This document shows positions 1 to 33,520 of a stretch of DNA of 33,520 nucleotides, piece by piece (within the stretch, counting starts at the first letter, position 1; every line of letters begins with the position of its first letter). The position numbers and the translations under genes are program-made. The notes under the pieces are model-generated. The model worked only from the letters and a program-made list of their open reading frames with translations. It did no database searches and was not told where the DNA came from. The stretch is from a virus. The stretch lies in IMG/VR virus record IMGVR_UViG_3300025874_000003; one strand, given 5' to 3'.

Positions 1-127
1 CACGAAAACGTATGCGCTGTACGTTATGAGAATATAGAAAAGATACTAGAAGAGCGCGGCACAAGGCTCGACAGATTGGATGGTAAAATTGATGGACTAT
101 ATAAAACAGTCATTGCTTGTTCGCTTA
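1..127. repeat. Terminal overlap, copy 1 (identical to 33394-33520)
   Basis: Base-by-base comparison shows 1-127 equals 33394-33520. This implies a circular or circularly permuted molecule of 33,393 bp. Confidence 0.95.
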
Positions 128-168
128 CTCCTATTATTGTTGTTGTTGCAATTATCAAATTTTTGTAA
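1..168 (+). CDS. 3' part of the junction-spanning gene (same gene as 33340-33520); tail-anchored coiled-coil membrane protein, 73 aa in total
   Basis: Frame 1 is open from base 1 to TAA at 166-168 and continues the frame of the ATG at 33340. The C-terminus TVIACSLTPIIVVVAIIKFL is a transmembrane segment. Confidence 0.6.
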   Translation, partial: HENVCAVRYENIEKILEERGTRLDRLDGKIDGLYKTVIACSLTPIIVVVAIIKFL

Positions 169-673
169 CGCACAAGAAGAGCAAGCCGCCACAGTAGGTG
201 ACTTTGGCTCTAACAACCAGCAAAGCGCTGAGAGCATTGATAACAGGACGACTACGACTATTACTCAAGAAGGCGCTGTAGTTAGCACTGCGGTTGCTCC
301 GAGCGGCTCTAGCTACAATCAGGACGTATGTGTATTCTCTGGTAGTGCTGGCGTACAAACACAAATGTTTGGATTAGCCATTGGCAAGCCTGTCGTAGAT
401 CAAAACTGTGAGCGTTTAAAGCTGTCTAAACAGTTACAGGCTCTAGGTCTAAAAGTGGCTGCTGTTAGTGTTATGTGCCAAGACCATAGGGTATGGTGGG
501 CTTTATATGAATCGGGAACGCCCTGCCCGACTAATCAAGGATTAATTGGAAATGATGCGTACACTTTTTATAAACACCGCCCTGATAGGGTTCCTGATCA
601 GCCTGTCGTTTACCGCGAAGAGTCAAACAGACCTCCAAAACAGTACAGCCGTCATAGACAGCCTAATAAGTGA
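80..673 (+). CDS. Secreted Cys-containing protein of unknown function (start ATG 80 or ATG 92)
   Basis: 197-aa ORF in an AT-rich genome. The N-terminus MDYIKQSLLVRLLLLLLLLQLSNFCNA/QEEQ reads as a Sec signal peptide, and the mature part has four Cys. No in-frame start exists downstream of 168 before 365, so overlap with the upstream gene is obligatory. Confidence 0.6.
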   Translation: MVKLMDYIKQSLLVRLLLLLLLLQLSNFCNAQEEQAATVGDFGSNNQQSAESIDNRTTTTITQEGAVVSTAVAPSGSSYNQDVCVFSGSAGVQTQMFGLAIGKPVVDQNCERLKLSKQLQALGLKVAAVSVMCQDHRVWWALYESGTPCPTNQGLIGNDAYTFYKHRPDRVPDQPVVYREESNRPPKQYSRHRQPNK

Positions 674-1331
674 TGGGGCTAATAATTTCATTTCGCAAAT
701 GGCTGAAAATATGGTCGATGGCACTACTGATATTGTGCATCCTGATACTGGCAAGCAGTACCATGTTACCCAAGAACAACTCAATGCATTTAATGCTGCC
801 TATTCTTTGGCACTCGCCGAATCCACTCAAGAGCACCTCACTGCTCTGCTGATTCAAGATCAGATTATCGGCCAGCAAATTGAATTTGAAGAGCAAAAAA
901 ATACAATGATTAACGAAGCTGAAAAGATGGCTGCCGTTACCGCTATTGCTGCTGAGATAGAGGTTGCCAATGAGTCAACTAAGATCGGCATGGAGAAGTA
1001 TGCAACTGATAACGACTTGCGAGAAATAAAGCAGGATACAAGAGATAAGTATGCGGCTAGTATAGAAGGTATGGTAGTAGCTAGTCGGACTAAAAATATG
1101 CTTGAACAGTACGAAGGAGCAATAATTGAATCAACGACCTTTGTCACACAGGCTTCTGGTACTGTTCAAGCATTCTACGATTCCGCATCTGTACAAATAG
1201 ATCAGATGTACCTAAACCAACTAAACGTAGCTTGGGCTGGTGAAGTCGTAGGTGTAGAGAATCAGTTTTGGCTAGTAAATTCAAATATGCAAGGTGAGTT
1301 CTACCCTGATGATATAGAGATGCAACCATAA
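552..1331 (+). CDS. Secreted helical protein of unknown function
   Basis: The ORF track starts at TTG 546. ATG 552 lies 10 nt after AAGGA (537-541). MMRTLFINTALIGFLISLSFTAKS is a signal peptide. Overlaps the 80-673 gene by 122 nt in another frame. Confidence 0.7.
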   Translation: MMRTLFINTALIGFLISLSFTAKSQTDLQNSTAVIDSLISDGANNFISQMAENMVDGTTDIVHPDTGKQYHVTQEQLNAFNAAYSLALAESTQEHLTALLIQDQIIGQQIEFEEQKNTMINEAEKMAAVTAIAAEIEVANESTKIGMEKYATDNDLREIKQDTRDKYAASIEGMVVASRTKNMLEQYEGAIIESTTFVTQASGTVQAFYDSASVQIDQMYLNQLNVAWAGEVVGVENQFWLVNSNMQGEFYPDDIEMQP

Positions 1332-1726
1332 TGAAAGCAGAGCAAATTAGCACATGGATTGGAATCGCTACAGCCTTTGCGGGTGTAGTAGCCTCGTTTG
1401 TGACAATGGAGACAAAGTTAGAAGCCTTAGAAAATAAAATGGCTGAAATTTATAATGTTGAAGAAATACGTGCGCTTGAGCGTAGATTGACTACACTTGA
1501 GGTAACACAACAGAATAGTGATATAAGCCACATCTCAGCAACCATAGCAACCATACAGGGGAATATTAAAAATGTTGAAACAAAGATTAGTGGAATCAAA
1601 GAAACGGATACAAGTGAAATTCAAAGCGGCGTTCGCGTCAACAAAAGCAGAATTAGCAATCTGGAAAGCAAAATTGAAAGGATTAGTTATCAGGTTGAAA
1701 AAAGCAATCAAAATCCACTAGGGTGA
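1331..1726 (+). CDS. N-terminally anchored coiled-coil membrane protein (i-spanin-like architecture, function unknown)
   Basis: TAATG junction with the upstream gene. N-terminal TM segment ISTWIGIATAFAGVVASFVTM is followed by heptad-like repeats. Confidence 0.7.
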   Translation: MKAEQISTWIGIATAFAGVVASFVTMETKLEALENKMAEIYNVEEIRALERRLTTLEVTQQNSDISHISATIATIQGNIKNVETKISGIKETDTSEIQSGVRVNKSRISNLESKIERISYQVEKSNQNPLG

Positions 1727-1730
1727 TCGC

Positions 1731-2015
1731 ATGGCTAAGAAAGACCCACGACTAGAAAAGAATAACCTAGAGGGCTTTAATAAGCCTAAACGTACACCTA
1801 AGCATGGCACTAAAAGCCATGTTGTTCTCGCTAAAGAGGGCGACAAGGTTAAGCTGATACGTTTTGGCCAGCAAGGTGCAGATACTAAACCGCCAAGAAA
1901 GGGTGAGAGCGATGCTGATAAGGCTAAACGCGCATCCTTTAAAGCTAGACATAAGAAGAATATAGACAAGGTTAAGATGTTAGGCGCATACTGGGCCGAT
2001 AAGGTTAAGTGGTAA
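1731..2015 (+). CDS. Small basic conserved phage protein, unknown function
   Basis: 94-aa ORF starting at ATG with tight spacing to neighbours. The IRFGQQG and AYWADKVKW C-terminal motifs recall a small protein family common in marine phages. That family is recalled from memory and not verified. Confidence 0.65.
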   Translation: MAKKDPRLEKNNLEGFNKPKRTPKHGTKSHVVLAKEGDKVKLIRFGQQGADTKPPRKGESDADKAKRASFKARHKKNIDKVKMLGAYWADKVKW

Positions 2016-2033
2016 ACTAAAGGGAGTTACACA

Positions 2034-3188
2034 ATGGACGCGAATCATTTAGAATTTTGCTCTACTGAGAAGCAACTAACCGCCGTTAAATTATATATAA
2101 AAGGTCACTCTGAGCATCAGGTGGCTAAGTTAATGGGCGTTTCTCGCGCTACCGCACAATCATTTAAAAGAGCTGTAAGAAAGAAAGCCGCTGCAAAAGG
2201 GTATGCCCCTGACAGCGATATGATTAGAATCTGCCCTAGCAATTACAATGTTAAGGGAACCTCTACCCTCTACGGCGATGACGGACAAGTTAAAGTCCAA
2301 TGGGTTAAGACTGACCTAGAGAAAGAAGACCAGCTAGAAGCTGTTGAAATTGCGCTTAAAAACTTCATTAAAGACCACGAAAAACGCTCACCATTCGTAC
2401 CGACACCAACTAAAAGTAAGCGTAGTGATGAATTAGCTGTAGTTAATATCGGTGATGCTCACTTTGGTATGTACGCCCATAAAGACATTAGCGGCGACAA
2501 CTACGATGTAAACATAGCAGCGCAGCGTCACAAAGATGTGTTCATGCGCCTTATGAATAATGCTCCAGATTGCGACACTATCGTTATTAATCAGCTAGGC
2601 GATTACTACCATGCTGATAACTACGAGAGCACGACCACTAAAGGCACACGAGTGGACACAGATGGCCGTTTAGAGCACGTATTCCTTATAGGGCTTGAGG
2701 TTATGTCGTTTATAACTGAAGAGGCTTTAAAGAAGTTTAAGAAAGTAATTGTACGTCACGTTAAGGGCAACCATGATTCTGTTTTGAGCATGGGAATCAA
2801 AGCGCACCAACAGGCATACTGGCGTAACAATAAGCGCGTTAAGATTGAGATGTCACCTGCACCTGCATGGGTATTTGAGTGGGGTAAAACTGCTTTTCTT
2901 GTATCGCACGGTCACGCACCTAAACCTAACAAGCTGGCCGAATACTTCACCGCAAAATATCCTGAAGAGTGGGGCCGAACGAAACACCGCTACTGCTATC
3001 ATGGTCATATACATTCCAAGAATACAGCTATGGAAACTTATGGCGGTTGTATTACTGAATCTTTTGCTGGACTACCTAGTGCTGACGCATGGCATAATGA
3101 GCAAGGGTACGTAAGTGGGCAATCCATGTGCTTGATTGTCTTAGATAAGGAAAAAGGTGAGGTTCGCCGATCTACTGAGAGGTTGTAA
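2034..3188 (+). CDS. Fusion of an N-terminal HTH domain and a calcineurin-like metallophosphoesterase
   Basis: AGGGAG Shine-Dalgarno precedes the ATG. The N-terminus EHQVAKLMGVSRATAQSFKRAV is an HTH. Phosphoesterase motifs are read directly: GDAHFG, GDYYHADN, GNHD, SHGH, GHIH. Confidence 0.75.
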   Translation: MDANHLEFCSTEKQLTAVKLYIKGHSEHQVAKLMGVSRATAQSFKRAVRKKAAAKGYAPDSDMIRICPSNYNVKGTSTLYGDDGQVKVQWVKTDLEKEDQLEAVEIALKNFIKDHEKRSPFVPTPTKSKRSDELAVVNIGDAHFGMYAHKDISGDNYDVNIAAQRHKDVFMRLMNNAPDCDTIVINQLGDYYHADNYESTTTKGTRVDTDGRLEHVFLIGLEVMSFITEEALKKFKKVIVRHVKGNHDSVLSMGIKAHQQAYWRNNKRVKIEMSPAPAWVFEWGKTAFLVSHGHAPKPNKLAEYFTAKYPEEWGRTKHRYCYHGHIHSKNTAMETYGGCITESFAGLPSADAWHNEQGYVSGQSMCLIVLDKEKGEVRRSTERL

Positions 3189-3388
3189 TGACAGAAGTTG
3201 ATAATATTACCGACCACGATGGCTATGATTATTACAATTCAGCAACAGATGATTTGTATCTAAAGATATTGGACTTGATATATGAATATCAGGAAAGAGA
3301 GCTGATAACAGATATAGACGCTGTTGGTATACTTGAATGGGCTAAACACCAGATTTTATCATCGGCTTTTCAAGAAGAGGGAGAGTAA
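3188..3388 (+). CDS. Hypothetical acidic protein
   Basis: 66-aa ORF with a TAATG overlap to the upstream gene. Confidence 0.6.
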   Translation: MTEVDNITDHDGYDYYNSATDDLYLKILDLIYEYQERELITDIDAVGILEWAKHQILSSAFQEEGE

Positions 3389-3389
3389 A

Positions 3390-3641
3390 GTGACATATGT
3401 AGACCCAGTAAATCACCCCGCACACTACACGCATGGCGAGATAGAGACTATTGACTATATTGTTGATGTTTTAGGTGTGGAGGGAGCTATAGAGTATTGC
3501 CACGGTAATGTGATTAAATATACTGGCAGCAGATTAATGACTAAAGAAAACCCAGTACAAGATGCCAAGAAAGCTGTCTGGTATATGACTAAAATGATCG
3601 AACTAATGGAAAGTTTAGGAGAGAATTATGCCCCAAGGTAA
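3390..3641 (+). CDS. DUF3310-like phage protein
   Basis: GTG start at 3390 follows GAGGGAGAG and comes directly after the upstream stop. NHPAHYTHGEIETIDYI...GNVIKY...DAKKAVWYM matches the remembered DUF3310 pattern. Confidence 0.7.
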   Translation: MTYVDPVNHPAHYTHGEIETIDYIVDVLGVEGAIEYCHGNVIKYTGSRLMTKENPVQDAKKAVWYMTKMIELMESLGENYAPR

Positions 3642-3717
3642 AGGTACATACGGTAGCAAAGTAGGCGCACCACCAAAGAAAGGTAAGAAAAAACCAATGA
3701 AGAAGCCTAAGAAATGA
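3628..3717 (+). CDS. 29-aa lysine-rich peptide (MPQGKGTYGSKVGAPPKKGKKKPMKKPKK)
   Basis: ATG at 3628 follows AGGAGAGA. Its TGA overlaps the holin ATG (ATGA). Too short for the ORF track. Confidence 0.4.
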   Translation: MPQGKGTYGSKVGAPPKKGKKKPMKKPKK

Positions 3718-4190
3718 ATTTTAAATCTATTAAGAGCTTAATCGGCGCTGTAGCTCCAGTTCTAGGTACGGCTTTGGGCAGCCCTCTAGGTGGCGCTGCT
3801 GCGTCTGCAATTGCATCTGCTTTAGGTTGTGGAAACGACACTAAAAGCATTGAGAAAGCCTTACAGAACGCCTCACCAGAACAATTGCTTGAAGTTAAGA
3901 AAGCTGAGTTAGATTTTGAAACTAAAATGGCGGAATTAGAAGTAGATATATTTGCTTTGGAGGCAGAAGATGTCAAAAATGCGAGACAGGCACACAAAGG
4001 CGATTGGACACCAAGAATCGTTGCGCTTGTGTCTCTTGTGGGCTTCGTTGGGTATATTTTCCTTGTTACTATCCAGCCACCTGATGCTAATAGCGACACA
4101 ATAGTAAGTTTAATACTGGGTTATATGGGCGGTGTAGTATCTGCCATAACTTCTTTTTACTTCGGTGCGAGTCATAAATCAGATGGGTAA
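3714..4190 (+). CDS. Holin (GTA/3TM-holin-like)
   Basis: Gly/Ala-rich amphipathic N-terminus, a central charged coiled segment, and C-terminal TM segments (IVALVSLVGFVGYIFLV, IVSLILGYMGGVVSAITSFYF). Lies immediately upstream of the endolysin and overlaps it. Confidence 0.6.
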   Translation: MNFKSIKSLIGAVAPVLGTALGSPLGGAAASAIASALGCGNDTKSIEKALQNASPEQLLEVKKAELDFETKMAELEVDIFALEAEDVKNARQAHKGDWTPRIVALVSLVGFVGYIFLVTIQPPDANSDTIVSLILGYMGGVVSAITSFYFGASHKSDG

Positions 4191-4533
4191 GTTTAAATAC
4201 TTTAAAAGAGAAGAGTTTGATTGCCAAGAGACTGGCGAGAATGATATGCAGGATGAATTTATCCATGCGTTAGACGAGCTACGTGAGGCGGCAGGTTTTG
4301 CTTTTACAATTACTTCTGGATATAGAAGTGAAAAGCACTCTATTGAAGCTAAAAAGGCTGCTGGCGGTATGCACACTAAAGGCATTGCCGCAGATATAAG
4401 AGTTAGCAGTGGGGCGCAAAGATTCTTGCTGGCGAAACTAGCGTTCGAGTTAGGGTTTAGTGGTATTGGTATCGCCAAGACTTTTGTACACGTAGATATA
4501 CGCAAGACTGTCCCCGTGCTTTGGACTTATTAG
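4183..4533 (+). CDS. Endolysin, peptidase M15 (D-Ala-D-Ala carboxypeptidase / L-Ala-D-Glu peptidase fold)
   Basis: ATG 4183 overlaps the holin stop by 8 nt, whereas the ORF track starts at GTG 4165. Zn-ligand pattern HTKGIAADI ... HVD and the SGYRS motif are present. Confidence 0.8.
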   Translation: MGKFKYFKREEFDCQETGENDMQDEFIHALDELREAAGFAFTITSGYRSEKHSIEAKKAAGGMHTKGIAADIRVSSGAQRFLLAKLAFELGFSGIGIAKTFVHVDIRKTVPVLWTY

Positions 4534-4739
4534 GTGAGCTGCTTGTCACAAGTGTCGTATTTTTGTGGCTCTCCGTATTTGTATTCAGTCCAGATATGCT
4601 GATCTAAAAGTCTTAGAGCCTCTTGTACAAACTTGAAGTCTTCTTCTCTAATATATGTTTTAAAGGCTATGTGCAGTTGGTAGCGTATCTCGCACAAATC
4701 TTTATAGTTGTCATGCCACTGCCTAGACGTTTGTTTCAT
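4530..4739 (-). CDS. Hypothetical protein, last gene of the leftward arm
   Basis: ATG at 4739 with GGGAGA 7 nt upstream. Its stop codon overlaps the endolysin stop on the opposite strand. Confidence 0.6.
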   Translation of the reverse strand: MKQTSRQWHDNYKDLCEIRYQLHIAFKTYIREEDFKFVQEALRLLDQHIWTEYKYGEPQKYDTCDKQLT

Positions 4740-5184
4740 CTTTTAATCTCCCGAACTCACCCAAAGTTTCAAGAACAACGCCTTGCTGCGCTGCAAATGC
4801 CTGTACGAACTCCATAAACATAAACATTTCCCCTTTATCGTATTCACTTGTACTTTTTAACACTAAGGCGCTAATCCCTGTGTCATGGTTTGTTACTCTT
4901 TTACACAGCCATCTGTAGTCTGCATTGTTATAAGCGGCTTGCTTTAAGATTATCTTGGCGTCATCAACATCCGACTTTTGAATACTTTTAAGCGGAACTT
5001 TAAACCTCCAAGCAGCGTACTCTCTAACCCAGATGTGGAGTAGGGCGCTTTGCGATAATGACCTGTTCGACATGCCTGTTACCTTAACCTTAAACGCTTC
5101 TTTTTTATCTATCAACTCACTAATAGACCTCAGAAAATCATCTACAGAGTCGGGCTTTGCTGGTATAACTATAAATTCACGCAC
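4723..5184 (-). CDS. ninB: NinB/Orf-family recombination mediator
   Basis: GTG start with AAGGTGAG upstream. RSLSQSALLHIW and TSEYDKGEMFMFMEFVQAFAAQQGV align by eye with lambda NinB (RSLDQNRKLW ... TSRMRVGEFAELLELIQAFG). Confidence 0.65.
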   Translation of the reverse strand: MREFIVIPAKPDSVDDFLRSISELIDKKEAFKVKVTGMSNRSLSQSALLHIWVREYAAWRFKVPLKSIQKSDVDDAKIILKQAAYNNADYRWLCKRVTNHDTGISALVLKSTSEYDKGEMFMFMEFVQAFAAQQGVVLETLGEFGRLKDETNV

Positions 5185-5545
5185 CTTTTCTCACCTTTTT
5201 TACTTTACGTTTGTAATGCCTTTCGTTTAACTTTCTAAAGACGTAATCGCCAACATACAGGTCGTAACAGATATTCTTTTTGTTATCGGCCATCCTACAT
5301 ATATCAACTTCATCAAATCCGTTGCGTAGTGCAAACATGGCCAGCGTGCCAAAAGCGTTTACTCTATGAGTGTTGTTTATATTGTCTCGCACTTCAGACA
5401 GTCTTAATTTATTACCAAACATTGAAGTCTGTATATCCCACGGGTTAAACCTTTCGCTTACGCCCCCGTTATCAACTCCTAACTCGGTTATTGTGCTTGT
5501 TTGACTACCACTTGCTGTTGTTGTCGCTTGAGCGGTGTACTGCAT
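5177..5545 (-). CDS. Hypothetical protein
   Basis: The ORF track starts at TTG 5557. ATG 5545 (MQYTAQ...) has GGAGG 5 nt upstream and is preferred. Confidence 0.65.
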   Translation of the reverse strand: MQYTAQATTTASGSQTSTITELGVDNGGVSERFNPWDIQTSMFGNKLRLSEVRDNINNTHRVNAFGTLAMFALRNGFDEVDICRMADNKKNICYDLYVGDYVFRKLNERHYKRKVKKVRKGA

Positions 5546-5556
5546 AAAATCCTCCA

Positions 5557-5577
5557 ATTTTGGGAGGTATTACATTA
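5557..5577 (+). repeat. Solitary copy of the 21-bp motif (ATTTTGGGAGGTATTACATTA)
   Basis: Matches the tandem copies at 11672-11738 at 19 of 21 positions. It is in + orientation inside the minus-strand operon. Confidence 0.85.
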
Positions 5578-5612
5578 GATTTTTAACCTAATGCAATACC
5601 CATGCACACTTC

Positions 5613-5906
5613 CTAGAATGGAATATCGTCATCAAAGTCAATCGGTGCAGCCTGTTGCGGTTGCTGCTGTTGCTGCGGTTGTTGCTGTTGCTGACCTTGG
5701 AACGCATTAGCCTTTACTTCATCGACTGCTTTAAAGCTAAACTTCACACTTGGCGCTTTAGGATTGCCGTTTGGGTCGCGCTTCCAACCTGACACGTAGT
5801 ATTCAACACCACCTACCATCGCCTTACCAGTAAAGTGCGGGTGCTTATCAGAAGCTCTATCTTTAGCTGGCCATAATGCGCCTTTGTTATCGTCGTTGTA
5901 TTCCAT
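5613..5906 (-). CDS. Mini SSB-like protein with a Q/P-rich linker and a canonical SSB C-terminal tip
   Basis: 97 aa. The last eight residues DFDDDIPF equal the E. coli SSB tip. A QGQQQQQPQQQQQPQQ linker precedes it. The N-terminal domain is only about 65 aa. Confidence 0.65.
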   Translation of the reverse strand: MEYNDDNKGALWPAKDRASDKHPHFTGKAMVGGVEYYVSGWKRDPNGNPKAPSVKFSFKAVDEVKANAFQGQQQQQPQQQQQPQQAAPIDFDDDIPF

Positions 5907-6020
5907 ATTATCTCTCTTTAGTCTAGGTGGAAAATAACTCTCAAATTTAAGAGTAGTTTTAAGTTAATTAAGGTGCTGGTAGATAAGCTAAACCGACCAG
6001 CGGCGGCGCGAAGGACGAGC

Positions 6021-33100: not shown

Positions 33101-33340
33101 TACACTTTTCGTAATATATCTGCAAATGCTAATTCTAAAATAACTATAGACTTAGACGGCTTTACCTCTGCCTCTTCACAAGGCAATACGCAGTATTATT
33201 CAATCAACAAATATGACGGCTCCACACCGTCATTAATAACTAGCGCGGCAGCTAATTTAGTTATAAGCGTAGGAGGGGTTATAGAGATGTCCCCTATTTC
33301 TTCTGCTGTTTGGCATGTAACTGGAACTGGTTTTGCATAA
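30194..33340 (+). CDS. Tail fibre with a conserved N-terminal anchor and six roughly 100-aa repeat modules
   Basis: The N-terminus IKLRRGTKAQ...GEVTVDTTDDTLRVHDGSLKGG is the widespread fibre anchor (Mtd_N-like) motif. The G(I/L)xVTGTV motif recurs six times. Confidence 0.8.
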   Translation: MATEIKLRRGTKAQHDDGSGFTGAEGEVTVDTTDDTLRVHDGSLKGGHVIAKLSDVEASDTLAELLAKGNSTGSNDIQVDGTDKVTFGAESGGKLEIYEDDSQNGVIKQTGTGALKISGIYGTLNNDSDEELISWDTDNAGLSWRGASGAGLKLFTKETGIGVTGTVNASDGLTADYIDLTGGESTTTTGTIACKQIVLNDPTSTNDGDDGTDLARIYTESTITNRSSLVIHSADDGNDQIVLRTDNDVDVLVADSHGINVTGTVDCDGLKMDDGEYAQFGTANDLQIFHSGNHSYIKDRGTGILSIQSDGDSITFHDSANARDMAKFSVGGTASLNWAGGTGTGTKLATTATGINVTGTVTASDGLTADYIDLTGGESTTTTGTVACTTIKLADPSTPENDQHLIYTEADSVDSPLTNLVIHAGDDTHEKVILRVGNNNGGHIDALKATGSGVDIASSLDVTGTVTADGVNLADDKKLTMGTSDDFRIYKNASGNAIIHESGSGNLEIRGESGTLRNNANETCLGWNADKAYLYWQGDTGTKGERLKTTDSGIDVTGTVTCDEALTISSTGAAADAKPDIWLFNNAPAAVNERLGQITWYGKNDVSPEQETVNYAFQEVKTTNVGDSTEQAEMQFHIRNGASHVEVLTLDSSGIDVTGTVEADAFSGTGTTAITDFVTAVSTNNNDTTVPTTAAVKSYVDNNDGDTTYTGGTGLTLNGTTFNVDAAQTGITSVGTLSGLTTGATTVNGSLSVNSTSADTTYSPEIVLERNGGAAAGDDGDKLGVITFKGDDTSGTQAVYAQIGARIVDDGADNTNTKGEIRIACGYNATANLEDPSLRIDHLGTWINESQADGSADSSFYNVSGFRSGIKYWANQSSGYAIEVKSATPTADRDIKFPDVSGLVVVSGVAGGSMNGGGGLGTAQTAWSPEQFMANANTDYYHYTDASTDVDLLVAVPFSGIDLAEYGTKYTFRNISANANSKITIDLDGFTSASSQGNTQYYSINKYDGSTPSLITSAAANLVISVGGVIEMSPISSAVWHVTGTGFA

Positions 33341-33520
33341 TGGAATTATCAATGGAACAGAAGATTGACAAGGCTCTAGCTCGCATAGAGGGCCACGAAA
33401 ACGTATGCGCTGTACGTTATGAGAATATAGAAAAGATACTAGAAGAGCGCGGCACAAGGCTCGACAGATTGGATGGTAAAATTGATGGACTATATAAAAC
33501 AGTCATTGCTTGTTCGCTTA
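33340..33520 (+). CDS. 5' part of the junction-spanning gene (continues as 128-168 after circularisation)
   Basis: TAATG overlap with the fibre stop. MELSMEQKIDKALARIEGHENVCAVRYENIEKILEERG... is a coiled coil, and the frame is conserved across the 33,393-bp period. Confidence 0.6.
   Translation, partial: MELSMEQKIDKALARIEGHENVCAVRYENIEKILEERGTRLDRLDGKIDGLYKTVIACSL
33394..33520. repeat. Terminal overlap, copy 2 (identical to 1-127)
   Basis: Exact 127-bp duplicate of the window start. Confidence 0.95.

Follow-up and report, generated by a model that had tools for sequence, protein, structure and literature searches.

A conserved chain of dual-coded genes for predicted exported and membrane-anchored proteins beside the lysis genes of a circular phage genome

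The IMG/VR virus record IMGVR_UViG_3300025874_000003 is a stretch of 33,520 nucleotides (nt) from a marine phage, analysed here at its full length and referred to as the window, in which a row of small genes that we call g1 to g5 follows the tail-fibre gene. Bases 1-127 are identical to bases 33394-33520, and this exact 127-bp terminal duplication indicates that the stretch is a complete circular contig of 33,393 bp (~33.4 kb). A first-pass annotation, made from the letters of the DNA without database searches, had described the first three of these genes as a chain whose hydrophobic anchor and leader segments are dual-coded in long out-of-frame overlaps, and its coordinates and sequences are correct. 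Comparison with relatives shows that this chain is real, conserved, and more extensive than first described: g1, g2, and g3 are real late genes in three successive frames (Table 1), and another gene, g4e, lies embedded in g4. The relatives gathered comprised 47 viral contigs that carry g3, five that carry the closest homologue of g2 in a long context, and more contigs retrieved through the holin-like gene of the neighbourhood (hol). They carry L-numbers, with L058, L059, L060, and L133 corresponding to phages HTVC202P, CRP-810, HTVC115P, and CRP-207, respectively. Diversity at silent sites was compared in 33 non-redundant sequences with the Mann-Whitney test.

The first gene of the chain, g1, is a single open reading frame (ORF) of 73 codons that starts at 33340, crosses the contig junction as had been proposed, and encodes a protein ending in TVIACSLTPIIVVVAIIKFL. 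Its diversity at codon positions 1, 2, and 3 is 0.113, 0.100, and 0.372, a periodicity that marks g1 as a real gene. In the protein, a helical domain at the N-terminus and an invariant HExxC motif are combined with a transmembrane anchor at the C-terminus. Searches for g1 retrieved 19 protein clusters. The gene exists in at least three divergent subtypes that share the HExxC motif, a GLY/WGLY motif, and the C-terminal anchor, with H19, E20, C23, I30, L34, and Y52 common to eight divergent variants. Two candidate families were rejected. XhlA (PF10779) was ruled out because none of eight g1 variants matched the Pfam model at E <= 0.1, and membership in the RcGTA Rcc01685 family (NCBIfam NF048001) was set aside at a score of 19.3 bits against a curated cut-off of 50. 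Model NF048001 gave weak matches for five of eight g1 variants (best E = 2.6e-4), and Rcc01685 itself is a single long helix of unknown function (PMC7296036).

The anchor of g1 and the signal peptide of g2 are read from the same DNA in all three g1 subtypes, in overlaps of 44-89 nt. The g2 frame is open from ATG 80, with in-frame starts at 80, 89, 92, 113, and 137-146, and then at ATG 365. In L014, L018, L019, and L030, a stop lies just before the codon matching ATG 92; therefore, 92 is the conserved start of g2 and the overlap with g1 is 77 nt, or 89 nt if ATG 80 were used, which accounts for both ends of the range of 77-89 nt given previously. No usable g2 start lies beyond the overlap, as the first-pass annotation had also held, since initiation at ATG 365 would delete the invariant residues A71, P74, D82, and C84. 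Inside the overlap the g1 frame is the more constrained (diversity at its codon positions 0.249/0.058/0.335). Only 0.22% of synonymous recodings of g1 leave the g2 frame open, and the codon choice of g1 in the overlap is non-random. The ATT and GTT codons that specify Ile and Val in g1 read TTA and TTG (Leu) when shifted by one base, and the Ile/Val-rich anchor of g1 thus becomes, in the +1 frame, the poly-Leu core of the g2 signal peptide.

The product of g2 consists of a signal peptide, a Ser/Thr/Asn/Gln-rich linker, a four-cysteine helical domain, and a basic tail. The leader and the low-complexity linker occur in all aligned members of the family, and cysteines C84, C110, C133, and C149 are invariant, a pattern that fits a disulfide-bonded periplasmic protein. 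The leader of g2 (MDYIKQSLLVR / LLLLLLLLQL / SNFCNA, then QEE) and that of g3 (MMR / TLFINTALIGFLISLSF / TAKS, then QTD) both have the features of Sec-type signal peptides, judged heuristically from n/h/c-region features and the -3/-1 rule only: a basic n-region, an h-region of about ten or more hydrophobic residues, and small residues at -3 and -1, a pattern that is kept in homologues. The two leaders stay signal-peptide-like, with small -3/-1 residues, even at 34-46% identity, and appear consistent with Sec export and cleavage by signal peptidase I. The possibility that g2 is a lipoprotein modified at the cysteine in its leader was ruled out, as Phe occupies position -1 and the cysteine is missing in close relatives. 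Searches yielded 6069 homologues of g2 at E <= 0.001; no Pfam family matched g2, and the one PHROG that did, phrog_20531 (E = 1.4e-15), is of unknown function. AlphaFold modelling was one of the checks proposed in the first-pass annotation. The AlphaFold2 model of g2 is confident in its helical core only (predicted local distance difference test score, pLDDT, 78-90); a search of the PDB with it gave no match, and its matches in BFVD were all to uncharacterised phage proteins. The model of g3 is unreliable (pLDDT 44) and too poor for a structure search.

The second overlap carries the signal peptide and the start of the mature portion of g3 over the end of g2. A frame that was lacking or interrupted by stops in relatives would argue against dual coding here; both frames proved open in ~50 relatives, and the g3 ATG, its open frame, and an overlap of 104-122 nt are kept in every relative that spans the region, including L006 at 57% (g2) and 46% (g3) identity. 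Relative to the rest of each gene, third-position diversity in the overlap is reduced from 0.448 to 0.229 in g2 (p = 3.9e-8) and from 0.447 to 0.254 in g3 (p = 5e-6). The synonymous-site constraint that the first-pass annotation had suggested seeking across related phages is therefore present, with diversity about halved in both frames. At about nt 620 the constraint shifts from the reading frame of g2 to that of g3. Positions 552-620 are mainly g2-constrained, with g2 periodicity and a YKxRPDxVPDxP motif, and encode only leader in the g3 frame, whereas positions 621-673 are mainly g3-constrained, with the mature start SQTDLQNxTAxIxSLI in g3 and a variable basic tail in g2. The g3 ribosome-binding site, AAGGA (537-541), lies within conserved g2 codons, and g3 can thus be made only from mRNA that also carries g2.

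These overlaps could instead be illusions of annotation, with g3 translated from ATG 699 (M50), the start beyond the overlap, and with the g1 anchor or the g2 tail untranslated and open only by virtue of the partner frame. Many gene callers chose a g3 of 206-214 amino acids (aa), and the contig's own gene call uses ATG 699 (P0134, 210 aa). In addition, the g3 frame stays open in 61% of synonymous recodings of g2; a single sequence therefore proves little, and the case for g2/g3 rests on comparative data. In those data the periodicity of g3 begins at ~nt 621, and both it and the invariant residues begin ~80 nt before ATG 699. Residues 25-49 of g3 are highly conserved, with T26, L28, T32, I35, L38, and I39 invariant; therefore, the 210-aa form is wrong. 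ATG 552 comes three codons after an in-frame stop (543-545), the only possible upstream starts are 546, 552, and 555, and the leader is retained in g3 members at 38-46% identity as well as in the unrelated genes that occupy the same slot in other phages. Given also the non-random codon choice of g1 and the conservation of its anchor in three subtypes, we regard an artefact as highly improbable.

Each overlap pairs a stretch of one protein that tolerates sequence change with a constrained stretch of the neighbouring protein. At the g2/g3 junction, the DNA for the conserved end of the g2 domain also encodes the g3 leader, and further on the conserved beginning of mature g3 is encoded together with the disordered basic tail of g2. 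The g3 family itself is narrow: 129 clustered homologues were found, and a collection of 1.8 billion proteins yielded 18 representatives. A frame-1 ORF at 670-852 (+) in g3 was considered as a fourth link of the chain and rejected: stops break its frame in 8 of 33 relatives, the relatives do not share its start, and the third-position diversity of g3 across it is normal (0.49). This ORF encodes 60 aa of hydrophobic character, begins where g2 ends, and is open in L001 too.

Table 1 Features of the cluster, its neighbours, and the corresponding secreted-protein genes of cultured phages. All are in the window unless another contig is named.
Feature	Coordinates	Strand	Description
Tail fibre, 1048 aa	30194-33340	+	Upstream of g1
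g1, 5' part, codons 1-60	33340..33520	+	ORF; continues at base 128
g1, 3' part	1..168	+	Encodes ...GLYKTVIACSLTPIIVVVAIIKFL; TAA stop 166-168; 1-127 duplicate 33394-33520
g1/g2 overlap, 77 nt	92..168	+	g1 anchor in frame 1; g2 signal peptide in frame 2 (+1)
g2, 193 aa (197 aa from ATG 80)	92..673	+	Conserved start 92; TGA 671-673
g2/g3 overlap, 122 nt	552..673	+	g3 leader and mature start over g2 end
g3, 259 aa	552..1331	+	Leader MMRTLFINTALIGFLISLSFTAKS then QTDLQ; predicted mostly helical secreted protein
g4, 131 aa	1331..1726	+	N-terminal transmembrane segment, coiled coil, conserved C-terminal NPLG
g4e, 49 aa	1572..1721	+	+1 frame in g4; net charge +13; without signal or transmembrane segment
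g5, 94 aa	1731..2015	+	Very basic; ends AYWADKVKW; phrog_7595, E = 1.9e-38
Putative holin (hol), 158-aa membrane protein	3714..4190	+	phrog_1544; overlaps endolysin gene start
Endolysin, Peptidase_M15_3 type	4165..4533	+	Pfam E = 5.2e-11; phrog_894 'endolysin' E = 1.9e-32
g3-slot gene, re-read (CRP-810)	L059 5524-6315		Signal peptide upstream of annotated start
g3-slot gene, re-read (CRP-207)	L133 2468-3295		Signal peptide upstream of annotated start
g3-slot gene, re-read (HTVC115P)	L060 5416/5470-6933		Signal peptide upstream of annotated start
g3-slot gene, re-read (HTVC202P)	L058 5439-6767		Signal peptide upstream of annotated start

The chain is followed, as expected from the first-pass annotation, by an N-anchored coiled-coil protein. 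The ATG of its gene, g4, shares one base with the stop of g3 (TAATG), and the protein has a hydrophobic segment at about residues 8-26 and then the coiled coil; the membrane anchor is C-terminal in g1 and N-terminal in g4. Positive charges precede the transmembrane segment in the g4-like proteins of CRP-810, HTVC115P, L054, and L056 and are ambiguous in g4 itself, so the flanking charges of the relatives would favour an N-in, C-out topology. Identification of g4 as a DUF2730 releasin was rejected. Its score against DUF2730 (PF10805), 22.7 bits, is below the gathering cut-off of 24.9, and the matches at E <= 0.01, obtained for g4 and 4 of 11 relatives (5/12; best 7.7e-5), are no better than those to generic coiled-coil families. 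A match of g4 to phrog_739, 'Rz-like spanin', is weak (E = 0.0083) and stands among many coiled-coil matches.

The embedded gene g4e was absent from the first-pass annotation and was found here as a further conserved gene, with a ribosome-binding site, AGGGGA, 10 nt upstream of its start. Its ATG and open frame are present in 33 of 33 non-redundant relatives, and the third-position diversity of g4 is 0.483 outside g4e and 0.294 within it (p = 3e-5). The g4e frame would stay open in just 1.5% of recodings of g4, and the between-lineage amino-acid identity of g4e matches that of g4 over the same DNA. In L085-type contigs (L080, L082-L086; details from L085), g4 has decayed, with its N-terminus lost, an in-frame stop, and NPLG changed to TPLR, and L085 retains the g4e ORF as a free-standing gene of 57 aa (2822-2995). 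The g4e products have a net charge of +10 to +13 across relatives, and their helical hydrophobic moment and amphipathicity are not above those of shuffled sequences. No embedded cationic ORF was found in distant g4-like genes, which indicates that g4e is specific to the clade of the window phage. Homologues of g5 of ~90 aa lie beside the module in CRP-810 (L059 6739-6990), CRP-207 (L133 4228-4506), and HTVC202P (L058 4396-4668). In L001, an unrelated 54-aa cationic protein takes the place of g5.

Distant homologues of g2 occur in cultured Pelagibacter, Roseobacter, Achromobacter, and Ralstonia phages. In the Pelagibacter phages HTVC202P (gp24-26) and HTVC115P (gp54, gp53, gp49) and the Roseobacter phages CRP-810 (gp53-51) and CRP-207 (gp75-73), they belong to a trio consisting of a g2-like gene, a gene for a secreted protein of unrelated sequence, and a gene for a membrane-anchored coiled-coil protein with a terminal NPL, often accompanied by a homologue of g5. 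The NPL lies at the C-terminus or no more than five residues from it (...NPLG, ...NPLGR, ...DNPL, ...NPLSNMK), and at 45 of 77 non-redundant g2 loci an NPL-ending ORF with a hydrophobic segment in its first 75 residues is found within 6 kb downstream. At 50 of 71 non-redundant loci of the g2 family, the downstream leader begins at least 40 nt inside g2, in 49 of the 50 cases in the +1 frame, which makes the long overlap an old trait of the family. The overlap measures 161 nt in CRP-810, 77-80 nt in CRP-207, and at least 77 nt in HTVC115P; it is not universal, with nearly none in HTVC202P, L054, and L136-L138. All proteins in the g3 slot have leaders, although they are unrelated in sequence; a proposed homology between the window g3 and CRP-810 gp52 was rejected at an hhalign probability of 0.2%. 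The GenBank starts of CRP-810 gp52, CRP-207 gp74, HTVC115P gp53, and HTVC202P gp25 cut off these leaders, which reappear when the genes are read from further upstream (Table 1).

Several observations concern individual loci of this wider family. The g4-like proteins CRP-810 gp51 (L059 6315-6737) and CRP-207 gp73 (L133 3292-3873) are labelled lysozyme and are membrane-anchored coiled coils ending in NPLGR and DNPL; in a scan that covered CRP-810 gp51, this protein had no PHROG match and no lysozyme family was listed for its alignment. HTVC115P gp54 (L060 4947-5546), a g2 homologue, has a hydrophobic C-terminal segment, IIPMVITALAFGVAF, over the poly-Leu leader of the next gene, and is a second case of one hydrophobic segment written over another. 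In L054 (6134-7905), a porin gene (Porin_4/Porin_1) and a gene for a DUF4337 membrane protein lie directly upstream of the distant g2 homologue. In L006, which has no g1 at the locus, a 3130-aa protein (as called) with an HEMGH zinc-protease-like motif is encoded at 1-6007 and ends 7 nt into the g2 homologue.

In the window, the cluster sits between the tail-fibre gene and the holin-like and endolysin genes (3714-4533), the position reported for it originally. The tail fibre opens with an Mtd_N domain, known from the N-terminus of the major tropism determinant of the Bordetella phage. The + strand also encodes terminase, portal, major capsid protein, tape measure, and tail fibres, and the genome, with a G+C content of 41%, includes an exonuclease in addition to the 158-aa membrane protein and the M15 peptidase endolysin. 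No DNA-level similarity to any GenBank phage was found, and the closest capsid proteins from cultured phages are at most 43% identical. Scans of the genome for tRNAs and Rfam families gave zero matches, and promoter and terminator signals were no more frequent than chance. A host assignment from genome bins was rejected: the 32 matches were all metagenome-derived, with one Pelagibacteraceae isolate assembly (AG-439-D15) in addition, and their labels are scattered and include archaea, so that the bins probably contain mis-binned phage contigs. The first-pass annotation recognised nothing that the cluster resembles, and indeed no curated family matched the products of g1 to g4 and PADLOC defence models returned coiled-coil noise only.

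The order in most relatives is g2-g3-g4(-g5), hol, and M15 endolysin, and these genes are often contiguous; in the lineage of the window, g5 and hol are separated by genes for an exonuclease and a DUF3310 protein. The distance from the end of g4 to hol is 7 nt in L029 and L045, in L039 the endolysin gene ends at the start of g2, and in L124 hol is followed directly by g2. Where g2-g4 are missing (L118-L122, L126-L130; also L098), a g1-like gene abuts hol with a 4-nt overlap. In L121, for example, a 61-aa g1-like gene (1894-2079) with HExxC and a C-terminal anchor is followed by hol (2076-2558) and a lysozyme-type endolysin; the endolysin after the g1-hol pair is an M15 peptidase or a lysozyme, depending on the phage. 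Therefore, g1 is linked to the holin-like gene, and g2-g5 occupy a variable slot between the two. Conversely, g2-g4 occur without g1 in L012, L027, L039, and L041. These arrangements do not support the obligatory co-expression of all three chain members that the first-pass annotation had suggested, since g1 is found without g2-g4, g2-g4 are found without g1, and g2-g5 have been lost in L066 and L068. The rest of its proposal, an envelope-targeted set, fares better: the hydrophobic segments it described are present and, of the functions it listed, a spanin-like role in lysis fits best.

That fit depends partly on the lack of a lipoprotein spanin. Lipobox ORFs were sought in the complete genome with three patterns, which recovered the controls lambda Rz1 and Bor and missed the atypical P2 LysC, and apart from an antisense artefact within the portal gene none was found. 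In several backbones the module shares synteny with the holin-like gene and the endolysin gene, and together with the missing lipoprotein spanin this makes a lysis role the best-fitting guess. We infer that the module is an accessory part of the lysis cassette that acts at the envelope-breaching stage. This is the best-supported reading, to which we give an even chance, and superinfection exclusion and the timing of lysis are its alternatives. In such a system, g1 would work with the holin-like protein, and g2, g3, and g4 would form a periplasmic complex in which g4 is tethered to the inner membrane and its conserved NPLG tip binds the secreted partner. Such a complex would come into play during the final step of lysis or shortly before it and, possibly with the cationic g4e, would stand in for the lipoprotein spanin that was not found here.

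Several observations weigh against a lysis role. L066 and L068 have exonuclease and hol genes that are 99% identical to those of the window and yet are without g2-g5. They keep g1 together with an 85-aa chimeric ORF in which the g2 leader is fused to a fragment of g3 (L066 534-936, L068 1373-1733), and this natural loss indicates that the module is dispensable rather than essential. The trio of HTVC202P and the M15 endolysin gene of that phage are ~20 kb apart, and the phage carries a separate lipoprotein candidate, gp08, which the strict lipobox pattern missed and a looser one found, so that the lack of a lipoprotein cannot be claimed for HTVC202P. Because the patterns also missed P2 LysC, an atypical lipoprotein could have escaped in the window as well. 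The occupant of the g3 slot differs from lineage to lineage, with no relationship among the proteins, as conflict genes also show; g2 and g3 have no lipid anchor and no shown affinity for the outer membrane; and the g2 fold matches nothing solved, with the g3 model unreliable.

Some of these observations would suit a moron-type accessory module for superinfection exclusion, receptor masking, or another modification of the envelope, for which proximity to the lysis genes is incidental. Such a module could be present or absent among near-identical backbones, as in L066 and L068 compared with the window, and it could combine a hypervariable g3 slot with the variable, low-complexity linker of g2. 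The site just after the tail-fibre gene is common for such genes, cor, llp, and lom being accessory genes found after tail-fibre genes, and the one porin gene beside a distant g2 homologue, in L054, would also suit a role at the cell surface. However, the module shares its strand with the late genes, and promoter or terminator signals in it do not exceed chance; the g2 family is found no further than ~2.5 kb from the holin-like gene, and this in several different gene orders; and the trio is kept across phages of very different hosts and morphologies, which is broader than the known, lineage-specific exclusion systems. With no PADLOC match either, we consider a moron-type function unlikely.

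Alternatively, the genes could regulate the timing of lysis in the manner of an antiholin or of lysis inhibition, with g1 acting on the holin from the cytoplasm and g2, g3, and g4 reporting the state of the periplasm. The adjacency of g1 to the holin-like gene in phages without g2-g4 agrees with this idea, as does the dispensability of the module, which is usual for timing regulators, and periplasmic regulators of holins exist, T4 RI being one. Against it, no antiholin resembles any of the proteins in sequence or family, a timer made of three exported or anchored proteins and an embedded peptide would be elaborate, and the trio of HTVC202P is located away from the endolysin gene. A timing function therefore seems quite improbable.

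The lysis reading can be extended beyond the clade of the window. The g2/secreted-partner/NPLG trio may be an unrecognised and widespread lipoprotein-free lysis system that replaces spanins, with the +1 overlapped signal peptide as an ancient coupling device of the whole family. The trio, joined in the clade of the window phage by g1 and g4e, would then span or destabilise the periplasm and the outer membrane. We regard this extension as doubtful, but if true it would place a lipoprotein-free replacement for spanins in abundant marine phages, including those of SAR11 and Roseobacter. To our knowledge, essentially no annotation exists for the lysis genes of the phages that are most abundant in the ocean, and the cluster offers a concrete and testable set of candidates that recurs in cultured Pelagibacter and Roseobacter phages. 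The analysis also corrects public annotations, in which at least four g3-slot starts cut off signal peptides and two g4-like genes are labelled 'lysozyme'. More generally, the chain is a natural example of how dual coding is afforded, with leaders, anchors, and disordered tails placed over constrained segments and constraint passed between frames within one overlap. Gene finders that forbid long overlaps will continue to miss such genes.

Parts of the cluster can be compared with four known systems. In the Bacillus PBSX cassette the order is xhlA-xhlB-xlyA, and this succession of a small protein with a helical N-terminal part and a C-terminal anchor, a holin, and an endolysin resembles g1-hol-endolysin in L121. 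The two differ in that g1 has no XhlA match and that the host of PBSX is Gram-positive. The second system is the releasin of phage Mu, gp25 (DUF2730), a small protein with an N-terminal transmembrane segment and then a helical region, whose gene lies near the endolysin gene (PMC9239132). Members of DUF2730 are reported to have an N-out/C-in topology, the sequenced active phages that carry them are transposable only, and their genes lie within five genes of the endolysin (PMC9239132). The layout of g4, with its transmembrane segment and helical region, is like that of gp25, whereas the charges of its relatives would favour N-in/C-out. The endolysin of the window, read from a close homologue, is without the hydrophobic N-terminal segment of signal-anchor-release (SAR)-type enzymes, unlike the releasin setting. 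No Mu-like hallmarks were seen in the ORFs scanned, which gave terminase, NinB, and exonuclease matches, though not every ORF was scanned for a transposase.

The third system, the disruptin gp28 of phage phiKT, is a cationic peptide of 56 aa and charge +7 that disrupts the outer membrane in a spanin-less phage (bioRxiv 10.1101/515445). Like gp28, the g4e products are small (49-58 aa), cationic (+10 to +13), without a secretion signal, and encoded among lysis genes of a phage in which no spanin was found. At <80 aa, with a charge of at least +4, no membrane-targeting signal, and no spanin found, g4e falls within the screen used for disruptins. Unlike gp28, g4e is an embedded gene whose product has an amphipathicity not above that of shuffled sequences, and no homology between them can be claimed, as gp28 is essentially without relatives.

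The closest comparison is with spanins. A unimolecular spanin would combine an N-terminal lipobox with a C-terminal transmembrane segment, and no lipobox ORF was found in the genome; g1 has the anchor without a leader. Of the two-component architectures, the o-spanin, an outer-membrane lipoprotein with a lipobox cysteine, corresponded to no product of the genome in the three scans. The i-spanin, with an N-terminal transmembrane segment and a coiled coil, corresponds to g4 in architecture only, its topology being taken from the charges of relatives. The embedded g4e lies in the +1 frame of g4 in a cassette syntenic with holin-like and endolysin genes, but it is not a lipoprotein. Unlike two-component spanins, the cluster has no lipoprotein, comprises four or five genes instead of two, and has in the weak PHROG match of g4 its only sequence similarity to them; the overlapping pair g2/g3 consists of two proteins that are both predicted to be secreted by a Sec-type route, neither of which is the coiled-coil anchor. 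Like the overlapped pair P2 LysB/LysC and the embedded pair lambda Rz/Rz1, however, the genes lie in a lysis cassette, and in both settings the start of the downstream gene falls within the upstream gene, in the +1 frame, with the signal sequence of the downstream gene in the shared DNA, the overlap of P2 lysB/lysC being 146 nt in the +1 frame. In both, too, one partner is built like an inner-membrane protein that is anchored at its N-terminus and extends a coiled coil into the periplasm, here g4, and g4/g4e occur in embedded (window) and separated (L085) arrangements, as Rz/Rz1-type pairs do.

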